The notes: generated by a model from the letters alone, not told the origin. Shown: positions 1 to 64,000, counted from the stretch's first letter. The stretch is 64,000 nucleotides of DNA from an uncultured Bacilli bacterium (GCA_944336335.1 CALVLC010000001.1:1508-65507); one strand, 5' to 3'. Translations and numbers: made by a program.

Positions 1-696
1 ATCTTTTTTTGCAATTTCTTTTCGATTTTCTTCGCCAATTATTTCTCCATCACTTAAATAAATAATCTTATCGCTATATTTTTCAGCCAATTCTTTATTA
101 TGAGTAACTAAAATTACGAGATGATTCTCGCTAAGTTTTTTTAAAACTTCCATTACTTCAATACTTGTCTTACTATCAAGAGCACCAGTTGGTTCATCAG
201 CTAAAATAATTTTAGGATTATTAACAAGAGCTCTAGCGATAGCAATTCTTTGCATTTGTCCACCACTTAAATCAGAGCTTTTCTTGTCCTTTAATTCAAG
301 TAGATCGACCTTTTTTAATAGTTCCAATACTCTTTCTTCGGTTTTCTTTTTATCAGTTTCACCACCCAAAACTAAAGGTAACTCAATATTTTCATAAGCA
401 TTTAAATTTTTAATAAGGTGATAAGATTGAAAGACAAAACCAATAACTTTATTACGAAATTCATCTTTCTTTTCACTAGATAAACTATTTGTTGAAATTC
501 CATCTATTATAATATCTCCACTTGTAGGTTTATCTAAAAGACCAATTAAATTTAAAAAAGTAGATTTGCCACAACCTGATGGTCCAAGAATTGAATAAAA
601 ACCAGTATCAGAAAATTTTACATTAATGTTTTTAAGTGCATTAGTAACAATATTTCCACTTCTATAGTCTTTATTTAAGTTTTTAATTTCAATCAT
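1..696 (-). CDS. ABC transporter ATP-binding protein (C-terminal end runs off window start)
   Basis: Not in the ORF track because it touches the edge. My translation from ATG at 696 reads MIEIKNLNKDYRSG...GPSGCGKST (Walker A)...LSGGQMQRIAIARAL (signature)...ILADEPTGALD (Walker B). The layout is MacB/LolD-like. Confidence 0.85.
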   Translation of the reverse strand, partial: MIEIKNLNKDYRSGNIVTNALKNINVKFSDTGFYSILGPSGCGKSTFLNLIGLLDKPTSGDIIIDGISTNSLSSEKKDEFRNKVIGFVFQSYHLIKNLNAYENIELPLVLGGETDKKKTEERVLELLKKVDLLELKDKKSSDLSGGQMQRIAIARALVNNPKIILADEPTGALDSKTSIEVMEVLKKLSENHLVILVTHNKELAEKYSDKIIYLSDGEIIGEENRKEIAKKD

Positions 697-802
697 CTAA
701 ATCACCAGTTAACAAGATAAATTTTAACATTAATCAAAAAATTTACTTATATAAATTTAAAAAGATTTAAATTACAAAACTGAAAGTTATAAAATAAGCC
801 GT

Positions 803-1762
803 ATGCAATTTGAAAAGAAACAAGTTATTAGTTTTTTCTTATTAATCTTTGCTTCCTTTTTATGGGGCATTTCTTTTGTCTTTCAATCTATGGCTTCTAA
901 TCATTTAGGAACCTTTGCAATTAATACTTTCCGTTCTTTAATTGCTGCTATATTTTTAGTGCCTTTTATGATTTATTCTATCCATAAAAATAAGAAGAAT
1001 AATATTTCTCAAAACTTGAATTTTTCAATATTTAGTGGACTTTTTGCAGGGTTTTTTCTTGCTTTAGCAAATATTTTTCAACAATTAGGAGTCTCAACAA
1101 CAAGCACTTCTAAAAGTGGATTCATCACAGCTTTTTATATAATTTTAGTTCCTGTTGTTTCAATATTTTTCAAAAAGAAATGTTCAAAAAACGTCTATAT
1201 TGCAATCCTTATTGCTTTAGTAGGACTTGGCTTATTGACGCTAGATTCTTCTTTTAAAATAGAGTTAGGAGACATATATCTATTTATTGGATCAATCTTT
1301 TTTACATTTCAAATATTAACAATAGATTATGCTTCTAAAAAGAGTGACATTTTTCTTTTGATGTGTATTCAGATGACAACTAGTGGTTTAATCACTATGC
1401 CTTTTATAGCGCTTGAAGAGATTTCTTTTTCTTTAATGTATGAAGCATTATTTCCTTTATTATTTTTAGGTATTGCTTCAAATGGACTTGCTTATACAAT
1501 TCAAGTTTTTACTCAAAAACATCTTAATCCAACGCTAGCAAGTTTATTAATGTCTTTAGAAAGTGTATTTGCTTCTTTAACAGGAGTTATTATTTATACT
1601 TTTTACCAATTTAGTGATGTACCTCAATATCTTAATTTACAGCAAACTTTTGGTTGTGTTGTGATGTTTATCGCGGTAATTATCTCAATCTTACCTGGAA
1701 AACGGTTCACAGTTTCTTACTATAAAGAGCGCAAAAAGAACAAAGAAAACACATTACAATAA
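803..1762 (+). CDS. EamA/DMT-family transporter
   Basis: 319-aa polytopic membrane protein with about 10 hydrophobic segments in two halves, typical of drug/metabolite transporter (EamA) proteins. Confidence 0.65.
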   Translation: MQFEKKQVISFFLLIFASFLWGISFVFQSMASNHLGTFAINTFRSLIAAIFLVPFMIYSIHKNKKNNISQNLNFSIFSGLFAGFFLALANIFQQLGVSTTSTSKSGFITAFYIILVPVVSIFFKKKCSKNVYIAILIALVGLGLLTLDSSFKIELGDIYLFIGSIFFTFQILTIDYASKKSDIFLLMCIQMTTSGLITMPFIALEEISFSLMYEALFPLLFLGIASNGLAYTIQVFTQKHLNPTLASLLMSLESVFASLTGVIIYTFYQFSDVPQYLNLQQTFGCVVMFIAVIISILPGKRFTVSYYKERKKNKENTLQ

Positions 1763-16678: not shown

Positions 16679-16754
<76 letters not shown>

Positions 16755-16882
16755 CTCCGAATTAATCCGAACTATAGTACTTATCAGAATTTGATGGTAT
16801 TTACCGACAATATTCATGATTTCTTAGTTCGTAACAATTATAAAAGTTTGAAAGATTTACTAGAAAAGTAAATCTTTTTTTG
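16755..16882 (+). repeat. tRNA-abutting 127-bp module, copy A (includes a terminator at 16852-16882)
   Basis: Starts at the first base after the CCA of tRNA-Phe. By hand alignment it is about 90% identical to 56687-56813 (13 mismatches, no indels). It ends in the hairpin aagatttac-N7-gtaaatctt plus a T-run. Confidence 0.85.
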
Positions 16883-55392: not shown

Positions 55393-56403
55393 TTATTTCT
55401 TTGTTAATCCATGATAAGTTAAGAAATCAAGTAAGATTTCATATTCTGAATACATATAAGCTTTATATAAGCCAAGGAAGATTAAATATTCATCATCATA
55501 ATGTGGTTTTTTAAGTTTATAGTTTATGTGCTCAATACAAATTAAATTTACATCTAAAAAAGAAGCTTCACTATCGGATTTTTCTTTTAAATCTCTTTCC
55601 TGAGAGACTGCTAATCTATCACAAACTTTATTAAGGTAAGCTCTTCTACTTTCATAGTATGTCGAGATAAACATTGAGACATAATATAAAAGATCTTTCA
55701 TTCCTTTTTCAGTTAGTTTTATAGAATTTAACTTGAGTTTTGCAGAGATTTCTTTCATAAATAAAACTATTTTCTCAATTAAACGATAGTTTTGTTTACT
55801 TAAATCAACAATAGTTTCATCGACATATTTTTCGTATTCACCAAACTTTTCATTAAGAACATTTGTATCAAATAGTTCAGCTTTATAAATACGATCAAAG
55901 ATTTTTTCTTTATAAGTATTAAATAAATAAAGTTCACTTGTTCCAAAATCAAGCAAGTTAGAAACAACGATTACTTTGCAACCTGTTGCAATTAAATTAG
56001 TTAGATAACTTAAAAAAGCATCATAATCACTTGAAGCATATCTTTCTAAGTCATCAAGAATAACTACTTTATTTGGTTTAAGTTTATTAATCTTTAATAG
56101 GTAAGCTAAAGTTTTTTCAGTTGTAACTTCTTCTTCAAAAGGATTAATAACATTAGGAACAATATCATTAATATTTTTAGCATCTGGATGAACCTTCATG
56201 AATAAATTTGTATTGATTTCATCGATATTTTTCATACCATGTAGTGAAACATAATAAAAACGAACACCTTTATTTTCATTAGCCTTAACGTATTCATTTA
56301 AAAGATAGGTTTTACCACTTCCCCAAGGACCATCAAGAAGAATAATATTGTAATCACTATCAATAAAGTTATTTAAATCATCTAATATGTTTCTTTTATT
56401 CAT
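55393..56403 (-). CDS. KAP-type P-loop NTPase (short form, no TM insert)
   Basis: Walker A is ILLDGPWGSGKTYLLNEY (the GxWGxGKT form typical of KAP NTPases). Walker B is KVVILDDLERY (the IDDLDR-like KAP signature). There is a GGAGG RBS. Confidence 0.65.
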   Translation of the reverse strand: MNKRNILDDLNNFIDSDYNIILLDGPWGSGKTYLLNEYVKANENKGVRFYYVSLHGMKNIDEINTNLFMKVHPDAKNINDIVPNVINPFEEEVTTEKTLAYLLKINKLKPNKVVILDDLERYASSDYDAFLSYLTNLIATGCKVIVVSNLLDFGTSELYLFNTYKEKIFDRIYKAELFDTNVLNEKFGEYEKYVDETIVDLSKQNYRLIEKIVLFMKEISAKLKLNSIKLTEKGMKDLLYYVSMFISTYYESRRAYLNKVCDRLAVSQERDLKEKSDSEASFLDVNLICIEHINYKLKKPHYDDEYLIFLGLYKAYMYSEYEILLDFLTYHGLTKK

Positions 56404-56610: not shown

Positions 56611-56686
56611 GGGTCATTAGCGCAGTTGGGAGAGCGTTACAATGGCATTGTAAAGGTCACCGGTTCGAGCCCGGTATGATCCACCA
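56611..56686 (+). tRNA. tRNA-Ala (anticodon GGC)
   Basis: GGGTCAT/ATGATCC acceptor with the G3:U70 alanine identity pair, TTACA-ATGGCAT-TGTAA anticodon arm, CCGGT-TCGAGCC-CGG T-arm, and CCA. The upstream promoter is TTGCCA...TGaTAAAAT. Confidence 0.85.
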
Positions 56687-56813
56687 TTCCGGAACTATCC
56701 GAACTATAGCACATATCAGGATTTGATGGTAATTACCGACAATATTCATGATTTCTTAGTTCGTAACAATTATAAAAGTTTAGAAGATTTACTGAAAAAG
56801 TAAATCTTTTTTT
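56687..56813 (+). repeat. tRNA-abutting 127-bp module, copy B (includes a terminator at 56784-56813)
   Basis: Starts at the first base after the CCA of tRNA-Ala and is about 90% identical to 16755-16882. It ends in aagatttac-N7-gtaaatctt plus a T-run. Confidence 0.85.
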
Positions 56814-56814
56814 C

Positions 56815-56846
56815 TATAAAAAATAGGCTTTTTACAGCCTATTTTG
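56815..56846 (-). terminator. rho-independent terminator closing the element operon
   Basis: On the minus strand: aaataggct-gtaaaa-agcctattt followed by tttat. Confidence 0.7.
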
Positions 56847-56855
56847 AGTTCGAAC

Positions 56856-57011
56856 TTAACGACCATCCATTTTATCAAAAGTATCTCTAAACCATCTATC
56901 AGCTAACATTGCTTCGTATTTAGCAATTATAATTTTTGCTATTTCCGGAGCTATTTCTTTTATAATCGCTTTATCAAAATCACTTAGAGATTGTTTCTTT
57001 CTTTGCGTCAT
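56856..57011 (-). CDS. small hypothetical protein (51 aa)
   Basis: Below the ORF-track cutoff. GGAGGTAAAAATG marks the start, and the product is MTQRKKQSLSDFDKAIIKEIAPEIAKIIIAKYEAMLADRWFRDTFDKMDGR. It overlaps the 66-aa ORF by 32 nt in another frame. Confidence 0.4.
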   Translation of the reverse strand: MTQRKKQSLSDFDKAIIKEIAPEIAKIIIAKYEAMLADRWFRDTFDKMDGR

Positions 57012-57180
57012 TTTTACCTCCATTTTTCTTTTTATTTAACCGATATTTAAAACGTCGATTGTAATTCTTATCCTTATATAACTCTACAATCTTTGCAGCT
57101 ATTATAGGGATTATAGGATCAAGTTGTTCATCAGAAATTTCGACTTTAGTATGAGGTTCTTTTACCGAATTTTTCTCCAT
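56980..57180 (-). CDS. small basic hypothetical protein (66 aa)
   Basis: An ORF-track ORF with AGAGGT 5 nt upstream of the ATG. It overlaps the rep 3' end by 35 nt and has a Lys/Arg-rich C-terminus. Confidence 0.4.
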   Translation of the reverse strand: MEKNSVKEPHTKVEISDEQLDPIIPIIAAKIVELYKDKNYNRRFKYRLNKKKNGGKNDAKKETISK

Positions 57181-58492
57181 AAAATACCTCTAACGCTGTT
57201 TCACTTATTGGTTTATCTAAGTCTATAAAACTATTTACATACTCTTTTAGATCAGTGAGATTTAGAAATTCATTTACTCTATAAATACGTCTACTTTCAT
57301 TAATCAACAATAAATCTTTATCATTTAATCTATTCAATGCTTCTTTTAAAGAGATGTTAATTAATTCATCCTTAGTTACTGGTTTACCGGCTAAAACTCT
57401 AGCAATAGATTTGCAAACTGTTTTAATCAACCATACAGCATTAGTATCAACTGAGACAGCAGTAGCATATTTAGCAAAAGGTTTTTCTTTTTCTACGCCT
57501 TGTAAAAAGTTTTTCCATTTATTCCGTGTCTCAGCTTTATATTTATTTGAATTTCTGTAATTATTTGATTCTTTAAATTCGATATTTGCTGCTAAGCATC
57601 CTGCAATATGCTTTGATTCTTTTCCTTCTTTTAATGCCGTTAATAACCTCTCAATTTCTTCCTCAGCATTTTGATGATAATATCTAGTTTCATACCTAAT
57701 CCAATTCTCTACTGAAAGTTGAAATCCTTTAACCTTTTGTTCAGCTTTTTTATCATAGATACAAAGTTGCGTACTTTTTCTTCCGCCGAAAATAGCACAA
57801 TATCCTGATAATTTGGAATCTATAACTGTAGGGATACCGATTAATGAGCCTTTGATTTCATCTTCGATTTGCTCATTCTTAATTTCATCTTCACCTGAAT
57901 CAGTTATTTCTAGATGCCTCATCCTAGTTATATATTCTCTATTTTTAATCTTTTCTTTTATTTCATTAATAGTTATATTTCCACTAAAATCATCAACAGG
58001 TATATCAATACGAGTACATATCCCACCGATTTCTAAACAATATTCAATTAGATCAATCCACGCTTTACGATTCATTTCTTCTCTATCGCTAATTTCACCA
58101 TTAATATAAACTGTATTAATCAAAACTCTTTCTTCAAAATCTCTACAAGCCGAGCCTTTCATTTCTAATAATATTGTGTTTAAACCTTCTTTTGTTTTAG
58201 TAATTTTTCCACCATACATGATTGACAAACCAACACCATATTCTTTCCTGTTTGTGTAACCATTAAATCCTTGACCTTCAATTCCTTCATTGTCTTTTAT
58301 AAATAATTTTTCTTTTAAACCATTTATTTCTTCCGAACTTTCTATGAATGTTAAATTAAACCTAAACTTTAAATAATCAACACAAGTATTGAATTGGTAT
58401 GAGGTAGGAGGGGTGTTACTATACCCCTCCTTCTGAGTTACTTTGTCTTCGTCAACATTTAACTCAGAAATAACTTTGTCATTTCTTTCTAT
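57146..58492 (-). CDS. Rep_trans-family rolling-circle initiator / MOBT-type relaxase (start codon uncertain)
   Basis: LCIYDKKAEQK...ENWIRYETRY parallels pT181 RepC IRIYNKKQERK...HLWRVEIEL. The conserved N-terminal CVDYLKFRFNLTF is encoded upstream of the ORF-track TTG at 58228, in the same open frame. The proposed ATA start at 58492 lies 8 nt after AGGAGG. Confidence 0.8.
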   Translation of the reverse strand: MERNDKVISELNVDEDKVTQKEGYSNTPPTSYQFNTCVDYLKFRFNLTFIESSEEINGLKEKLFIKDNEGIEGQGFNGYTNRKEYGVGLSIMYGGKITKTKEGLNTILLEMKGSACRDFEERVLINTVYINGEISDREEMNRKAWIDLIEYCLEIGGICTRIDIPVDDFSGNITINEIKEKIKNREYITRMRHLEITDSGEDEIKNEQIEDEIKGSLIGIPTVIDSKLSGYCAIFGGRKSTQLCIYDKKAEQKVKGFQLSVENWIRYETRYYHQNAEEEIERLLTALKEGKESKHIAGCLAANIEFKESNNYRNSNKYKAETRNKWKNFLQGVEKEKPFAKYATAVSVDTNAVWLIKTVCKSIARVLAGKPVTKDELINISLKEALNRLNDKDLLLINESRRIYRVNEFLNLTDLKEYVNSFIDLDKPISETALEVFYGEKFGKRTSY

Positions 58493-60734
58493 TTTGAATT
58501 CCTCCTGTAATGCTGGTTTCAGAACGGTCCGCAGCCTTCGCTTGCCTGGAGCCGTTCTTACACCTAGCTTTTACTTTAGGATTAAACTTCAAAAGCGGGT
58601 TCTCAAGATCCTTAACAATGTAGCTTCCTTGAGATTCCCATTCTTCCTTAGTCGGCATCATCGATTTATATTCTGGTATATCGAAGAATCCTGTATCTGC
58701 CTTTAACTTATTTGAATTTAAGAAATCTTTCATACAAGCTGATTCGAATCTTAATGAATAATCAATATAATAAATTATGTAAAATTTTTGTTTGTCACCT
58801 TCAATTAAATTACCTGTTGCATCCGCTCTACACGATGGAAGTTCAACTTCTTTATAACCAAATCTATTGTAAATATAAGATTCAATATAATAAGCAATTG
58901 AACCTATCCAATTTATAATATGAAAAAGCAAAGTATTATCTTCTCTAACAAAACGGTATTTTGAATAAAACCAATTTCTTAAGTTAATAAACGCATCTAA
59001 TATAGCAGGTTCAATATAAAACAATTTTAATGCACTTTTCTCTTTTTGATTTTTAGGATCAGCAGTGTAAATACTTTGCGCAACACTTACAAGATTAGTA
59101 GAAATAGATCCAGATCGTTGTTCGTCAGCAATAAATTTAAAGAAATTTGTATGCCAAACATTCGCTAAATGCCCGCCCAATTTTAATGAATAGTCTAATA
59201 AATCATTCTTTGGATTAGCAGTTTCATCCATAGCTGAATAGCTCGCATTTGTTAACATATTTCCATTTTCTTTACCAAATTCTGTAGCTACAGCAATCAT
59301 TGGACCGTTTGAATCCTTAAACTTATTTAAAGGATTAACCTTTCTTCCAAGTCTCAACATATCAAACACTAATATCCTTGATTTTTTAGAAAAAGACCGC
59401 AAATCTCTATTATTTCTTCTAAAAGAGTTATAATCCCATAAAACAAGATGTCCATTATCAAGCCTAATATCATCTGTTCTAATTGGATAATTACTAGCTA
59501 TTAGATTACCTTTTTGAAAATATATCCAATAAGATTCAACATATATAATAAGTGCATCTTTTAAAGATAAATTTACGCATCCATCATAATTTACACTTTT
59601 TTGTTCATTAATATTGTATCCATAAAGAACAAATGGTTTAGTTAAAGATATATCATAAATTTTACTAACAAAACGGGCACATTGTTGCATATTCACCAAT
59701 CTTTTTCTTTCAGCTAATCTAATAATATCTTTTTCTAATGCTATAAATGGAAAATCAGGAAACATTAATGATATTCGAGTCATATTTTCAAAAGCATTCT
59801 TGTGGTATATAGTGTTAGAAATGCGAGCTATTGAAGTAGCCAATGTAGTTTTCCCGCCCCTCATTTTACCGAGTATCAATGTGAAAACTCCTGTATCTGA
59901 ATTAACCATTTTTTCATTCCTAACCATTAATTTGCCTTCAATTAGTCTATATGCTCTTCTTATTGTTAAATATCTAATTAAACCAAAAAGTAAAAGCAAC
60001 TTTATAATTGATGGAAGGAAATTCAAACTACCTAATATGGTTAAAATTTCTACAAAAATAAAATCTATTAATCCATATATATTAAAACTTGAAAAGAAAT
60101 ATAAATATTCACCTATAATGTCTAAAACAATGCTAGGTATATTAAAACCAATAATCAAAATAGAGCATAAAATATATAAATATATTGAATCTTTAAACCA
60201 CAAAATATAATTTTTAATTACTTGAAACATCGGAATTAAAACTTTTTTCTTTATTTGAAAATAGGTCTTTAAAGGTTTGCTAGTCTCATTCCATGTTTTC
60301 TCGTTAGAACTTAAATAAATTGCAAAAATAATTATGATTACAACAAACAATAACGTAATAACGAGTGTTGATTTAGATATATTTAACATTGTATTTGAGA
60401 AATTAAGCATTTGCAGTTTTATAAAGTCAATATTTACCAATAGTGCAAATGATATTTTGATTTTTTCCCAAATTTTACCTAAATCAATTTCTAAAAGTTC
60501 TTGTGCAAAATAACCCAACGATAAATACTTATCTGTTAAAAATGAAACTTCAGATGTTTTATTGAATAAAAAGTTAAAATAATAAAGACCTTTTTCACTT
60601 AGAGAATTTAAAGAAATTATCAATCTAGGCACAAACGACCATTCTACGAAATAAATAAATATAAGAATTAAAAATATAATCGTTAAAGATATCAAATTTT
60701 TAATAAATAAATTAGCTATTTTTTTGTTCATCAT
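58479..60734 (-). CDS. polytopic membrane protein fused to a P-loop NTPase (Zot/pI-like or coupling-protein-like)
   Basis: 751 aa. The first ~280 aa contain about 8 hydrophobic helices. Walker A LILGKMRGGKTTLATS follows near residue 290, and a Walker-B-like FKFIADEQRSG lies near residue 555. It sits immediately upstream of rep. Confidence 0.6.
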   Translation of the reverse strand: MMNKKIANLFIKNLISLTIIFLILIFIYFVEWSFVPRLIISLNSLSEKGLYYFNFLFNKTSEVSFLTDKYLSLGYFAQELLEIDLGKIWEKIKISFALLVNIDFIKLQMLNFSNTMLNISKSTLVITLLFVVIIIIFAIYLSSNEKTWNETSKPLKTYFQIKKKVLIPMFQVIKNYILWFKDSIYLYILCSILIIGFNIPSIVLDIIGEYLYFFSSFNIYGLIDFIFVEILTILGSLNFLPSIIKLLLLFGLIRYLTIRRAYRLIEGKLMVRNEKMVNSDTGVFTLILGKMRGGKTTLATSIARISNTIYHKNAFENMTRISLMFPDFPFIALEKDIIRLAERKRLVNMQQCARFVSKIYDISLTKPFVLYGYNINEQKSVNYDGCVNLSLKDALIIYVESYWIYFQKGNLIASNYPIRTDDIRLDNGHLVLWDYNSFRRNNRDLRSFSKKSRILVFDMLRLGRKVNPLNKFKDSNGPMIAVATEFGKENGNMLTNASYSAMDETANPKNDLLDYSLKLGGHLANVWHTNFFKFIADEQRSGSISTNLVSVAQSIYTADPKNQKEKSALKLFYIEPAILDAFINLRNWFYSKYRFVREDNTLLFHIINWIGSIAYYIESYIYNRFGYKEVELPSCRADATGNLIEGDKQKFYIIYYIDYSLRFESACMKDFLNSNKLKADTGFFDIPEYKSMMPTKEEWESQGSYIVKDLENPLLKFNPKVKARCKNGSRQAKAADRSETSITGGIQNRKK

Positions 60735-61086
60735 TTTCTACCTTAAACATATATTCGTTATTAAATTTATTTATTAAATTTCCAGATCCTAATACTATCA
60801 TTTCCCAACAATCATCGTTTTCTATTGAAGAGCAGGAGAATGTTCCTGCTTCGTATGTGTACTTAAAATCTGTACCATAATTTTCAAGAATCATTCTCCC
60901 ATAGGAATTTTCGATAATTAAATAACTTTGTTTACTACTTTTATATTCACCAATTAATTCAATATTTGAAATTGTTGTTCCTCTAACTATTTCAATAAAA
61001 GGAGAAACAATAAATGAACCAATTAATAAAATTAATAATGTTAAAGCCATCTTTATCTTTCTTTTCCTTTTAAATAAATTAAACAT
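60712..61086 (-). CDS. small single-pass membrane protein
   Basis: 124 aa with a basic N-terminus and then the TM ALTLLILLIGSFIVSPFI. It overlaps both neighbours. Confidence 0.55.
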   Translation of the reverse strand: MFNLFKRKRKIKMALTLLILLIGSFIVSPFIEIVRGTTISNIELIGEYKSSKQSYLIIENSYGRMILENYGTDFKYTYEAGTFSCSSIENDDCWEMIVLGSGNLINKFNNEYMFKVENDEQKNS

Positions 61087-62666
61087 TATTTCTTAGTTTT
61101 GCGGGTTTTTTTACTAGAATTGTAATGATTTGGATAATGAATGGAAATGTTAGTATTATTCGATGATTTCTTTTTCTTATTATTTTTTACAATTAAATAA
61201 ATTATTCCTCCTACAAGTACTACAGCAGCAATTGCTCCTATAATGATTATTAAGTTTTTACCGATTGTTGATACATCAGTTCCAAACAAAGACATTGTTG
61301 TATATGTGTTTGGAGATGTTGTTATAGCAAAGTCACTATCAACGGGATTCATTAAAGCATTTAATTCAGCAATACCATCTTGATTTTGAAAAGCAAGTTT
61401 AACTATGGCTATATCAGTTGCTTCATGACATTTTGATTCAACTTTTCTTGTATTGACAATTGCGTCCCATAAATTGCTATTATCAGACGATGTTGCTATA
61501 CGATTTCTATATGATTCTCTAAAATCAATTGCGTATTTATATGATCCTCGATTAGCTTCGATGAAACTTTTAAAATTTTCATCTTTAATTTTATCAATAG
61601 ATTCATCGTCTAAAGCTTGGATAGTGTTATAGGAATAATCAATAGATTTAGTTATGTTCCAAAAGAAGAACAAAGTAACACTTGAAGTATTAGTTTTTAT
61701 TCTTTTAGAAGATGGCTTTACCGTTGATTCTTCTCTTACACTTTCTAAATTATAAAATTTCGCTTCTCTTGAATTATGACCATAAGTTTTAAAGAATTCA
61801 TCAGGATTTTCATACAAACCACCATAAACATTTTCATAAATTGCACCATCAACTCGATAACTAACATCATAGGTTAAGAATTCATAAGATACTGTTGCTT
61901 CAACAAGATTTCCTAAGGAATAATTCGTTCCCAAAGATGTATAGTCATAATCAAAGAACAACCAAAAAACTTCTTTATATTGAATTGCATCAGTTTGTGC
62001 GACTGCTTCAAATTTTGTGGGAATAAATTGAAGAACTGCAGAGTTATTATTCAAAATAATATAGTTATTATGATAATAAGTATAAATTTGATCAACGCCT
62101 TCTCTTTGATCTTCCCACGAATATTCTGAATCATTACATTCTCTAATCATCGTACTAGAATTATTTAATTCGCCGATAATCTTAAATGCTTTTACTCTAT
62201 GTTTTGAACCTACTTCATATTCGTAAAAATCGTCGCAAACAACTTTATAGAATCTCTTGTTAGTACCATTGACGTCATGAATTCTACAATTAAAAGCATC
62301 TTGACCTGTTTGATAATCTTCAATTATTTCAGTATTGTCTTCGTTCAAAGTTGTAGAGGTGCTATATTCAAATTTCACTGATGTAAATTCATATGGCAAA
62401 TCAACATAGAAATACAAATATAAATCGCCCTGATTTGCATACATTGTTAATAATTTAAAATCATCATATTGATCGCCATTTTCTTTATGTGGTACTAAAT
62501 AAGAAAGTGTGTTTTTAGGATATTGATCTTTATAAAAACAATATAAATCTTGTTGTACAGTAGAAGTTTCAATTGAAAATGTTGAATTAGAAGAGTTTGC
62601 GAATTTAATAGATGCAGGAGCTAATCCTATTGAAACAACAGCAACTAAAGAATTGAGTAATTTCAT
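61086..62666 (-). CDS. type I membrane-anchored surface protein
   Basis: 526 aa with the signal peptide MKLLNSLVAVVSIGLAPASI, an ectodomain of about 460 aa rich in Y/N/D, the C-terminal TM LIIIIGAIAAVVLVGGIIYLIV, and the polybasic tail KNNKKKKSS...KKTRKTKK. Confidence 0.65.
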   Translation of the reverse strand: MKLLNSLVAVVSIGLAPASIKFANSSNSTFSIETSTVQQDLYCFYKDQYPKNTLSYLVPHKENGDQYDDFKLLTMYANQGDLYLYFYVDLPYEFTSVKFEYSTSTTLNEDNTEIIEDYQTGQDAFNCRIHDVNGTNKRFYKVVCDDFYEYEVGSKHRVKAFKIIGELNNSSTMIRECNDSEYSWEDQREGVDQIYTYYHNNYIILNNNSAVLQFIPTKFEAVAQTDAIQYKEVFWLFFDYDYTSLGTNYSLGNLVEATVSYEFLTYDVSYRVDGAIYENVYGGLYENPDEFFKTYGHNSREAKFYNLESVREESTVKPSSKRIKTNTSSVTLFFFWNITKSIDYSYNTIQALDDESIDKIKDENFKSFIEANRGSYKYAIDFRESYRNRIATSSDNSNLWDAIVNTRKVESKCHEATDIAIVKLAFQNQDGIAELNALMNPVDSDFAITTSPNTYTTMSLFGTDVSTIGKNLIIIIGAIAAVVLVGGIIYLIVKNNKKKKSSNNTNISIHYPNHYNSSKKTRKTKK

Positions 62667-63166
62667 ATAATTCCCTCATAACAATAAGAATGGCTCACTT
62701 CAGGTTTAGCTCCATCTTCCTTTGCTACATTAATAAGCCGTATTCCAGGTTTATCTATTTGAATTGAAGCACTTTCTATTAAATCTAAAGCCACACTTTT
62801 AACTTGGATTACATTTTCATCATCTAATAACCAATCTCCAATAGTTAAAGAATTTGTATCTACTAGCGGTTCTGAACTGTAATCATAAAAGACTAATTTG
62901 TCTGATTGTCCGTCTAATTCATATAGTTCATCAGAATTAAATACTTTTCTATTTACACCATTTTTTGAAGAAACATCGATTATAAGTTCAACATTTCTAT
63001 TTTCTTGTTGTTTAGGAATACCTATATAAAGTTTTGAGTTATCAATATCTTTATTATTCATCGTTGTAAACATATAAGTTAAACCTAGAGTTCCCAATAT
63101 AATAGAAACTGCTGGCAAAGCTACAATAGCAATTTTCTTTGTTTTATTACTCATATTGTCCTCCAA
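62663..63166 (-). CDS. N-terminally anchored membrane protein
   Basis: 167 aa with the TM IAIVALPAVSIILGTLGLTYMF after a short basic N-terminus. There is an ATGA overlap with the downstream gene. Confidence 0.55.
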   Translation of the reverse strand: MEDNMSNKTKKIAIVALPAVSIILGTLGLTYMFTTMNNKDIDNSKLYIGIPKQQENRNVELIIDVSSKNGVNRKVFNSDELYELDGQSDKLVFYDYSSEPLVDTNSLTIGDWLLDDENVIQVKSVALDLIESASIQIDKPGIRLINVAKEDGAKPEVSHSYCYEGII

Positions 63167-63204
63167 AGGGCAAGATTTAAATCCTGCCCAAATTATTAAG
63201 CTGT

Positions 63205-64000
63205 TTATACATATTTACTCAATGTAAACACATAATAATGACCATCAATATCGAGAGCTATGTCACCATCTTGATAGTTATCTAGCATTCCGATATTAAT
63301 ATTAAATTCCCAATAGTTATATATGGATTCCAAGTTGCAGGATACATTAGTAATTGTAAAATTCTCAGCGGTTGTTCCTTTTTTTGACACGAAACTATTT
63401 GGATTTGAAACATTAGCTATTTCACCATACCAAGTTGGCAAAGCATCAGCCACATAAGTATGAATGTGCATCTCAATTCTTAAAGTCAAATCATCAGACA
63501 TTGTTGCATTTACAGCGTTCGATCTTTCGCTCGCTGTTTCTGGATCACCCGCTAATTCTGCAAGACCAGTCGATGTTTGAAACGCATCTGAATGAAAATA
63601 TTTACCATTTTGATCATAAGTATATTCTGAAGTAGCAGATGTGCTTCCATCATACATATCGTATTCTTTAATAAACGAAGAGCCAGTTGGTGTTGATACT
63701 GGTCCCAAGGAATAAATAGTCGCCTTTTTAACATGATTAAATGTTGTAATCAAAATTTCTTTTTTGATTTCAGGATCATCGGCGCTATAAACTCTTAGTA
63801 CTTTAGTAGTGTTAAAAGTTCCAACGCAAGAAACATTAACTGCTTCGCCAGGTTTACTTATTGCTTTATTAACTCTAACTTTACTTTCGTCGTTGCTTTC
63901 CCATACTAATAGTGCATCTTTTGGAAAATCACCAGTAAAATTTGCAGTTACAGCTACAGAAGGCAATACACTAGATTTAATATGAAATACAATTTTATCC
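63205..64000 (-). CDS. surface protein with Ig-like (Big_2-like) segment, 5' end outside window
   Basis: The frame stays open from 63966 to the window edge (..DKIVFHIKSSVLPSVAVTANF..). The segment VTANFTGD..LLVWESNDESKVRVNKAISKPGEAVNVSCVG resembles bacterial Ig-like group 2 repeats. Confidence 0.55.
   Translation of the reverse strand, partial: DKIVFHIKSSVLPSVAVTANFTGDFPKDALLVWESNDESKVRVNKAISKPGEAVNVSCVGTFNTTKVLRVYSADDPEIKKEILITTFNHVKKATIYSLGPVSTPTGSSFIKEYDMYDGSTSATSEYTYDQNGKYFHSDAFQTSTGLAELAGDPETASERSNAVNATMSDDLTLRIEMHIHTYVADALPTWYGEIANVSNPNSFVSKKGTTAENFTITNVSCNLESIYNYWEFNINIGMLDNYQDGDIALDIDGHYYVFTLSKYV

Follow-up and report, generated by a model that had tools for sequence, protein, structure and literature searches.

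A tRNA-integrated mobile element of gut Bacilli as a possible provirus of a capsid-less, membrane-enveloped virus group

What kind of element adjoins the tRNA-Ala gene near the end of the window (the whole 64,000-nucleotide stretch from an uncultured Bacilli bacterium analysed here)? A sequence-only reading had described it as an integrated element of unclear class and had hesitated between a conjugative element and a non-lytic prophage resembling inoviruses, plectroviruses or plasmaviruses. We lean, tentatively, towards the view that the window carries part of a provirus from an undescribed group of temperate, capsid-less, membrane-enveloped viruses (plasmavirus- or pleolipovirus-like) of small-genome gut Bacilli.

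The boundary of the element is precise. The tRNA-Ala(GGC) gene lies on the plus strand at 56611-56686 (ARAGORN; Rfam, 54 bits), and the base that follows its CCA 3' end is already the first base of the element, the junction reading ...CCACCA and then TTCCGGAAC; therefore the tRNA-Ala gene is the integration target. Related elements adjoin other tRNA genes in the same way (Phe, Ala-cgc, Glu, Lys and Pro). The element opens with a 127-bp non-coding end module (56687-56813, no strand assigned), which is kept in the related elements L002, L005 and L006 and consists of CGAACTA repeats that fold into a long, imperfect hairpin, with a further hairpin and a T-run behind them (DNA fold z = -2.8). This module probably serves as the att and/or origin region; it also acts as the terminator of the tRNA. 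That such a module exists, as the sequence-only reading had it, is clear from a second, solo copy at 16755-16881 on the plus strand: the two copies agree at 116 of 127 positions (E 9e-46), and both directly follow a tRNA CCA. The solo copy adjoins tRNA-Phe(GAA) at 16679-16754, the site that holds a full element in L005, and it may mark where a former copy lay or may be a pre-formed attachment site. Housekeeping genes (PTS EIIC, NAD synthase) lie 3' of it. L010, L011 and L034 have motifs related to the end module where they meet the tRNA.

The comparison of copies supports integration at tRNA genes. Over 7345 nt, the window and L005 share 94.9% identity; L005 and L006 share 97.5% over 10471 nt. 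The element has moved recently, because these near-identical copies (94-97%) occupy three different tRNA genes, namely tRNA-Ala in the window, tRNA-Phe in L005 and another tRNA-Ala in L006, and their flanks are unrelated. The conserved core measures about 10.5 kb, of which the 7.3 kb nearest to the tRNA lie in the window; the gene chain runs past the window end, as had been proposed, and in L002, L005 and L006 it goes on with g4, g3, g2 and g1.

According to the ORF listing of the window, all credible ORFs between 56856 and 64000 are on the minus strand, which agrees with the earlier description of the region downstream of tRNA-Ala. The chain comprises two small basic proteins, the Rep_trans initiator, the polytopic P-loop ATPase (751 aa) and four proteins anchored in the membrane. 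Nearest to the tRNA are g12 (56856-57023, minus; 55 aa, pI 9.1), kept in L002, L005 and L006, and g11 (56980-57180, minus; 66 aa, pI 9.7, with a lysine-rich tail), neither of which has a family match in Pfam or PHROG. On the other side of the initiator and the ATPase lie, all on the minus strand, g8 (60712-61086), which has 124 aa and a single membrane helix at its N-terminus and is syntenic throughout the clade-A relatives; g7 (61086-62666), a 526-aa type-I membrane protein; g6 (62663-63166), a 167-aa acidic, N-terminally anchored protein; and g5 (63205-64000, cut by the window end), an N-terminally anchored ectodomain protein with a full length of 336-340 aa in L006 and L002. The topology of g7 (a signal-like segment at the N-terminus, then a large ectodomain, a membrane helix spanning residues 472-490 and a basic tail) makes it a candidate spike or fusion/receptor-binding protein; it has no Pfam or PHROG match, and none of its 25 homologues (41-99% identity) is annotated. 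With g3 and g4, which lie outside the window, the element has seven consecutive membrane proteins, g3-g9. The overlaps reported earlier at 62663-62666, 61086, 60712-60734 and 57146-57180 are exact, and g11 and g12 share a further one at 56980-57023. The overlap at 58479-58492 holds only if the initiator starts at the non-canonical codon ATA 58492. The part of the element within the window has no integrase domain in Pfam, as the sequence-only reading had noted, and no capsid, portal, terminase or tail protein is matched among the element proteins in Pfam or PHROG.

The initiator (57146-58534, minus) was correctly assigned to Rep_trans: it matches PF02486 with E 1.2e-26 and 94 bits against a cut-off of 29.6, with a weak Rol_Rep_N match N-terminal to this region, and it matches the replication initiation proteins of phrog_453 (7e-12). 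It shares 22-26% identity with plasmid Rep, NicK and MobT proteins. The listed ORF covers 57146-58228, and the frame is open to 58534, being stop-free and homologous over 462 codons (84% identity over 462 aa to the L002 protein). From the upstream stop to 58228 this frame has no ATG, GTG or TTG. The start is probably ATA 58492, with an AGGAGG 8 nt before it; CTG 58534 occupies the place of a TTG in L002. Since the window initiator has no canonical start and that of L005 is frameshifted, individual copies may be decaying.

The hallmark protein of the element family is g9 (58479-60734, minus; 751 aa), which belongs to a large unannotated family: a profile search gave 832 clusters at 50% identity, nearly all full length. 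The description of a polytopic P-loop NTPase is accurate, as residues 1-280 form about seven long membrane helices and are followed by a cytoplasmic P-loop domain with the Walker A motif GKMRGGKT (residues 289-296) and conserved D458, E485 and D537-Q-R. The protein has no sequence match in Pfam, PHROG, PADLOC or PDB, and its family is nearly absent from IMG/VR (one distant match), which counts against a viral reading. Its AF2 model is confident (pLDDT 90.5). The only Foldseek matches with probability 1.0 are viral, namely A0A894JLK1 (E 1.7e-5) and ORF3 of Acholeplasma phage L2 (E 2.6e-3), with modest TM-scores of 0.44-0.53 normalised to the target, 0.44 being that of ORF3. The latter likewise has N-terminal membrane helices followed by the P-loop.

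A position of the ATPase gene directly before a Rep_trans gene is also known from Tn916 and ICEBs1, where the ATPase is of the coupling type, and Rep_trans proteins also act as MOBT relaxases. One could thus presume an integrative mobilisable or conjugative element, in which Rep_trans would be a MOBT relaxase working on an oriT within the end module, g9 would be a new kind of membrane DNA translocase or coupling protein, and the anchored surface proteins would serve as a minimal mating apparatus or as adhesins for thin-walled or wall-less hosts. The NicK- and MobT-annotated proteins among the best database relatives of the initiator, the lack of capsid genes in Pfam and PHROG, and the tRNA 3' end integration, integrases and accessory defence cargo typical of ICEs, including those of the Tn916/ICEBs1 type, and of IMEs, among them the streptococcal ones, agree with this. 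We nevertheless consider it unlikely. To our knowledge, a VirB4-like ATPase is universal in T4SS, whereas no element protein matches the VirB4 family in Pfam, and the confident g9 model finds no FtsK, TcpA, VirD4 or VirB4 fold in PDB, the best related match being HerA with a probability of 0.18; nor does any of 45 diverse g9 relatives match Pfam. VirB6 and the hydrolase of the Tn916/ICEBs1-type elements are lacking as well (Pfam), in agreement with the earlier statement that the ATPase is not FtsK-like in its motifs and that no VirB4-, VirB6- or hydrolase-like genes are seen, and the coupling-protein/MOBT-relaxase pair that it considered is not supported. In distant relatives, moreover, the Rep_trans slot after the ATPase is taken by initiators of other families (HUH Rep_OBD with S3 helicase, or a phrog_942 initiator), which are replication proteins rather than relaxases. 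A filamentous prophage, like an inovirus or plectrovirus, is an idea that we rate as quite unlikely, although Rep_trans initiators are used by plectroviruses and by the inoviruses of Gram-positive bacteria. Here Rep_trans would correspond to gpII, g7 to a gpIII-like adsorption protein, g8 to gpVI, and g9 to a very divergent gpI/Zot-type assembly ATPase. The order of a protein with a signal and a C-terminal anchor, a small membrane protein and a membrane ATPase does mimic gIII-gVI-gI, the small size fits a filamentous phage, a rolling-circle initiator of the kind expected in Inoviridae and Plectroviridae (Tubulavirales) is present, and a chronic non-lytic lifestyle, inferred for our element, would be shared. 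The name "Zot-like" given earlier to the ATPase, however, is not supported: neither g9 nor the 45 relatives match Zot in Pfam (PF05707) or PHROG, the fold matches are weak (2r2a in PDB with a probability of 0.41, Inoviridae Zot with 0.12), and the domain order is opposite to that of pI/Zot, in which an N-terminal P-loop precedes one membrane helix. Neither the element nor the g1-g2 spacer contains an ORF of 25-90 aa with a membrane helix that could encode a major coat protein (the smallest membrane protein is g8, 120-124 aa); no ssDNA-binding protein was found in the element, and nothing in filamentous phages corresponds to the four large, acidic ectodomain proteins with an N-terminal anchor.

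The possible signs of decay allow a further explanation, namely an integrative rolling-circle replicon that is not transmissible, or else a remnant in decay, mainly a carrier of defence genes, whose membrane proteins would work at the host cell surface, in exclusion or adhesion for instance. Defence cargo does lie beside nearly every copy, and the two initiator genes mentioned above, one frameshifted and one without a canonical start, fit as well, as does the solo relic at tRNA-Phe. We find this very unlikely in view of the recent horizontal movement, evident from elements that are nearly identical yet occupy three tRNA sites of different genomes, the nine genes (g2-g10) that keep their order and reading frames in elements with ATPases only 51-56% identical, that is, down to about 50%, and the 832 ATPase clusters, nearly all full length. 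PADLOC defence models match none of the nine core proteins g2-g10 (g2-g5 taken from L006; g1, g11 and g12 were left out). The PADLOC match was limited to a neighbouring host-side NTPase (PDC-S49).

Returning to the provirus that we favour, of the three virus types proposed from the sequence the plasmavirus-like one gains moderate support from the Foldseek match to L2 ORF3, the L2-type architecture and a host family predicted to lack peptidoglycan. Homology at the sequence level is not part of this support: hhalign gives probabilities of 0.05-19% against L2 ORF1, ORF2, ORF3, ORF12, ORF13 and ORF14, with only the P-loop or membrane helices aligned, and L2 was not found in a tblastn search of g9 against a phage collection. 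What ties the element to L2 is a single Foldseek result, whose TM-scores are modest. L2 and our element are alike in size (about 10-12 kb), in having every gene on the same strand and in their start-stop overlaps (for which translational coupling has been proposed in L2), and neither has capsid genes. The L2-type order of large envelope proteins, a small membrane protein, the membrane ATPase, one gene, a tyrosine integrase and att, with att at a tRNA, recurs in the sister elements L016, L019, L028 and L033 when compared with L2 and L021-L023; the window has no integrase. L2-type proviruses are known to integrate into tRNA genes (PMC12662186). The differences are also considerable: g9 has 751 aa, about seven membrane helices and large insertions against the 312 aa of L2 ORF3; our element encodes a Rep_trans rolling-circle initiator, whereas L2 relies on DnaA-box origins and the host replisome and has no Rep; and the core of the window lineage lacks the tyrosine integrase. 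The Pleolipoviridae (alphapleolipoviruses with a rolling-circle Rep) are similar by design only, with a small circular genome, integrated proviruses, no capsid, a type-I spike of about 500 aa, small membrane proteins and a conserved P-loop NTPase; this comparison draws on PMC7547991 and on general knowledge. Their hosts, however, are archaea and their Rep is of the HUH type and not Rep_trans.

The exchange of modules among relatives is also relevant. The same membrane/ATPase module is paired with three unrelated replication initiators (Rep_trans, phrog_942-type and HUH Rep_OBD with S3 helicase) and with tyrosine or DDE integrases, a pattern that virus families with a conserved morphogenetic module show. 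The circular contig L049 (14.5 kb), a distant relative, differs in its Rep and its integrase; its circularity fits a plasmid equally well.

The cycle that we propose starts from the directly supported mobility, tRNA targeting, gene set, membrane topology, Rep family, size of the ATPase family, exchange of the modules for replication and integration, and circular form of one relative. Beside the tRNA CCA end, the element would be kept silent by a divergent XRE repressor, as seen in relatives, and the excised circle would be copied by rolling-circle replication started by Rep_trans. One long operon would then place seven proteins in the cell membrane (the N-anchored ectodomain proteins g3-g6, the type-I spike-like g7, the small one-helix g8 and the polytopic ATPase g9), and its start-stop overlaps suggest translational coupling. 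From this gene set we infer that virions form and what each membrane protein does: g9, with its P-loop domain in the cytoplasm, may load or condense DNA at a membrane patch, g1, g2, g11 and g12, all small and basic, are candidates for DNA binding, and the particle would leave without lysis, by budding or extrusion. Re-integration would require a recombinase, and the integration enzyme is likewise proposed from the relatives. In sister lineages it could be the tyrosine integrase, which directly follows Rep in at least ten relatives; the core of the window lineage has no integrase, and its enzyme is probably of the large serine recombinase type, encoded at the distal end beyond the window. On the far side of a restriction-modification insert, L006 has an XRE repressor gene that adjoins such a recombinase.

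One host is Ca. Enteromonas, placed in RFN20/CAG-826 (PMC8035907), a family predicted to lack peptidoglycan (PMC10868615). Some members of the element family are annotated as belonging to Clostridia MAGs; a cell wall is to be expected in such hosts and would make budding difficult. At the other end of the element, the XRE repressor genes are homologous among relatives and divergently transcribed. At the tRNA end, some relatives show the order of Rep, tyrosine integrase, defence cargo and tRNA, and L016 and L028 end at tRNA-Ala(cgc).

From the base after tRNA-Ala(GGC) (56611-56686, plus strand, from the tRNA search) to the end of the window, all credible ORFs lie on the minus strand and are chained by overlaps. 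The sequence-only reading had described such a chain, and the overlap coordinates quoted there proved exact. With the element genes numbered from the distal end, ORF calling places g12, the gene nearest the tRNA, at 56856-57023, g11 at 56980-57180, the Rep_trans initiator (g10, hereafter Rep) from 57146 onward, the membrane ATPase g9 at 58479-60734, g8 at 60712-61086, g7 at 61086-62666, g6 at 62663-63166 and g5 from 63205 to past 64000, all on the minus strand. The G+C content of the window is 30%, and its genetic code is the standard one.

Element-bearing contigs were reached through homologues of the ATPase. The copy in L002 shares 80% DNA identity with the window, and both its tRNA-Ala and its host flank are those of the window. 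That in L005 (94.9% identity to the window) adjoins tRNA-Phe(GAA), beside tRNA-Asp and a tyrosyl-tRNA synthetase gene; L006, which is 93.7% identical to the window and 97.5% to L005, adjoins a different tRNA-Ala. Every copy begins at the base after CCA (...CCACCA/TTCCGGAACTATCCGAAC), and the homology between copies breaks off some 10.5 kb further on, immediately short of a conserved non-coding stretch that lies upstream of g1. Judged by these alignments, we are dealing with a mobile element whose core measures about 10.5 kb. The full order in the core is g1 (99-101 aa, basic), g2 (174 aa), g3-g6 (each with one N-terminal membrane helix and an acidic ectodomain), g7 (a signal-like segment and a C-terminal anchor), g8 (one membrane helix), g9, Rep, g11 and g12.

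The non-coding element end next to the tRNA, the 127-bp module at 56687-56813, is conserved in L002, L005 and L006; it folds into a long imperfect hairpin (CGAACTA...TAGTTCG) and, beyond it, a second hairpin that carries a T-run, and the tRNA junctions of other integrase-less lineages bear related motifs. The sequence-only reading proposed locating the far boundary by a repeat of this module or of the tRNA 3' end. The module does recur, but as a solo copy at 16755-16881, directly 3' of tRNA-Phe(GAA), which is the site filled by the full element in L005; a distal copy of the tRNA 3' end was not found within the roughly 3.5 kb by which the nearest contigs extend past g1. The solo module matches 56687-56813 at 116 of 127 positions (E 9e-46), its mismatches cluster in the 11 nt nearest the tRNA, and housekeeping genes come next. 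It should not be expected as the leftover of a clean site-specific excision. Three explanations are considered: a remnant of a lost copy, a long att repeat flanking the whole element, or a Rep-dependent origin/terminus unit.

No terminal direct or inverted repeats of at least 11 bp were found at the element edges, and the 8-bp ACCATTCC is the sole sequence present at both the tRNA junction and the edge of the conserved core. This presents an integration puzzle: near-identical copies are joined, to the base, to the CCA of different tRNA genes, and their conserved core has no integrase. On the g1 side of L006 there is a large serine recombinase with Resolvase and Recombinase domains (2-685, minus strand) and an XRE repressor (682-1044, minus strand); the pair lies 2.9 kb beyond g1, behind a methylase/endonuclease (restriction-modification) pair. 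Homologous, divergently transcribed XRE repressor genes are found on the g1 side in L006, L015, L031 and L034. The recombinase is our candidate for the integrase of the window lineage, and, given its position and that of the repressors, the distal end and the integrase of this lineage most likely lie beyond the cargo.

The gene order g2-g10 is kept in elements whose ATPase is only 51-56% identical to that of the window. In these, Rep_trans always follows the ATPase, and many have a tyrosine integrase directly after Rep; the integrase is then followed by the tRNA (L028) or by defence cargo and the tRNA (L016, L017 and L033). The tRNA targets of the family are Ala-ggc, Ala-cgc, Phe, Glu, Lys and Pro, in a single orientation throughout, and a metagenome scan added 79 further loci. 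In a second clade, whose ATPase is 26-32% identical to g9 of the window, the ATPase is still accompanied by the N-anchored proteins, a g7-like protein and a small membrane protein. The replication protein of this clade is a phrog_942-type initiator after the ATPase or an HUH Rep_OBD+S3-helicase protein elsewhere in the element, and an rve (DDE) integrase is often present. One distant relative, the 14,576-bp contig L049, has a 55-bp terminal overlap and is therefore a circle; besides a g9-like ATPase and a g7-like protein it encodes small basic proteins, a Rep of the HUH Rep_OBD+S3-helicase kind and an rve integrase, and no tRNA-like attP was found in it. Another contig, L096, is a circular permutation of the order in the integrated copies. 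Such a pairing of a conserved membrane/ATPase module with swappable modules for replication and integration marks a self-transmitting element whose identity resides in that module.

An Rfam search of the element and its relatives returned tRNAs only. An exact 36-nt motif, CCGGCATTCAAGTACCTATGGGCCGTAATAGATAGC, occurs downstream of Rep on the minus strand of three divergent elements (L008, 12065-12100; L018, 13846-13881; L031, 13832-13867); the window lacks it, Rfam gives no match for it, and it may serve as an origin or encode a small RNA.

Rep scores 94 bits against PF02486, well over the threshold. The ORF tool starts it at TTG 58228; the frame is open further upstream and, free of stops, is 84% identical to the complete 462-aa Rep of a relative. 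Between 58228 and the upstream stop the frame has no ATG, GTG or TTG start, and the TTG that starts Rep in L002 is CTG in the window (at 58534), L005 and L006. The sole start-like signal in the window is AGGAGG, 8 nt and then ATA at 58492, the very position implied by the ATPase/Rep overlap in the sequence-only reading. Since the CTG variant occurs at three different insertion sites, the lineage has moved while carrying it; being common to the window, L005 and L006, the CTG/ATA variant is older than the last moves of the element. Rep is probably still made. In L005, a 95%-identical copy, the Rep_trans gene has a frameshift at about 12900, which reflects either a decaying copy or an assembly error.

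The 751-aa ATPase g9 has no match in Pfam, PHROG, PADLOC (anti-phage defence models) or PDB sequences: Pfam gave generic AAA noise only for 45 family members, the sequence-profile search of the PDB gave P-loop noise only, and PADLOC returned nothing for the core proteins tested. A profile search of 1.84 billion representatives collected 832 clusters (50% identity) at E <= 1e-3, of which 487 reach E <= 1e-30. Among the best 150 of the 832, nearly all are full length (700-760 aa), and the few named relatives are "hypothetical" proteins from Bacilli and Clostridia MAGs. The AlphaFold model built with 83 sequences (pLDDT 90.5, pTM 0.84) predicts about seven long helices up to residue 280, then a P-loop domain in which a long helical insertion follows Walker A. 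Foldseek against the PDB returned nothing at E <= 1e-3, and no VirB4, VirD4 or FtsK; the weak fold matches were HerA, the STIV2 B204 packaging NTPase, the Zot N-domain (probability 0.41) and AAA+ proteins. Among predicted viral structures, two matched at probability 1.0. One is A0A894JLK1, a viral protein of 269 aa without a name (E 1.7e-5), and the other is P42538 (E 2.6e-3), which is ORF3 (37.2 kDa) of Acholeplasma phage L2. L2 ORF3 likewise has N-terminal membrane helices followed by Walker A (GGGKS) and Walker B (LILDEF). In the profile-profile comparison the P-loop alone aligns (probability 8-19%), so the relationship suggested by the model is structural and architectural and is not demonstrable by sequence.

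It is tempting to compare the element with plasmaviruses. L2 and the L2-type proviruses run from large envelope proteins through a membrane protein of 72-81 aa to the ORF3 ATPase; a single further gene then precedes the tyrosine integrase, after which come att and a repressor. The integrase-bearing relatives of our element are ordered as g6, g7, g8, g9, Rep, a tyrosine integrase and att at a tRNA. Both are 10-12 kb long, consist of one-strand operons with overlapping genes, and have no capsid genes. L2-type proviruses, too, integrate into tRNA genes (PMC12662186, ICTV profile). Sequence and profile searches found no homology of element proteins to L2 ORF1, ORF2, ORF3, ORF12, ORF13 or ORF14. 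Membership of Plasmaviridae is ruled out, because g6, g7 and g8 have no sequence similarity to any L2 protein and the element replicates by its own Rep_trans, whereas L2 uses DnaA-box origins.

We believe that a plasmavirus-like nature is the best supported reading, at somewhat less than an even chance; what speaks for it is the architecture, a single fold match and the biology of the host, rather than homology or particles. As to the hosts, one carrier is Candidatus Enteromonas, which belongs to GTDB order RFN20, family CAG-826 (PMC8035907), and this family is predicted to have no peptidoglycan (PMC10868615). The hosts of the members from Clostridia MAGs are expected to be walled, which argues for caution on budding. 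A new type of conjugative or mobilisable element (ICE) is improbable, as two defining components are lacking, VirB4 and a coupling protein of the FtsK/VirD4 type. Somewhat less probable still is a filamentous phage: the Zot signature is absent, the topology of the ATPase does not fit, and a search for small ORFs encoding a coat protein found none. The lowest probability goes to a non-transmissible carrier or remnant.

To our knowledge, L2 is the only plasmavirus ever classified, and capsid-less enveloped bacterial viruses are close to unknown. The plasmavirus-like reading can be extended, as a doubtful proposal, to g9 being the hallmark of a widespread, unrecognised lineage of such viruses that inhabits Bacilli and Clostridia of the gut. 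It would stand as a distant sister to Plasmaviridae, a family with a single species, would freely swap rolling-circle replication and integration modules, would use the 3' CCA of many tRNA genes and would be a main carrier of restriction and BREX-type defence cargo. If the elements form particles, they would be a new part of the gut virome and a bacterial counterpart to archaeal pleolipoviruses, and would account for the spread of defence islands among gut Bacilli with reduced genomes. Even if they are not viruses, g9 defines a new type of DNA-handling membrane ATPase. The g9 family is nearly absent from IMG/VR and has no Pfam, PHROG or PADLOC annotation, and thus appears to escape the annotation resources checked. 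The literature search found no description of the element family, which, together with its ATPase, is undescribed in the sequence libraries and literature searched.

Two further observations concern the surroundings of the elements. On the host side of tRNA-Ala, 55393-56403 (minus strand) encodes a KAP/AAA_22-type P-loop NTPase with matches to the PADLOC candidate defence family PDC-S49 (1.6e-21) and to phrog_4740 (5e-24); L002 carries an NTPase of this type in the same position. Genes for Y-family polymerases (IMS/UmuC-like) recur near the elements or in their flanks (L001, 2958-4223; L010, 17636-18877; L016, 20082-21637), and the one in L016 is accompanied by YolD.
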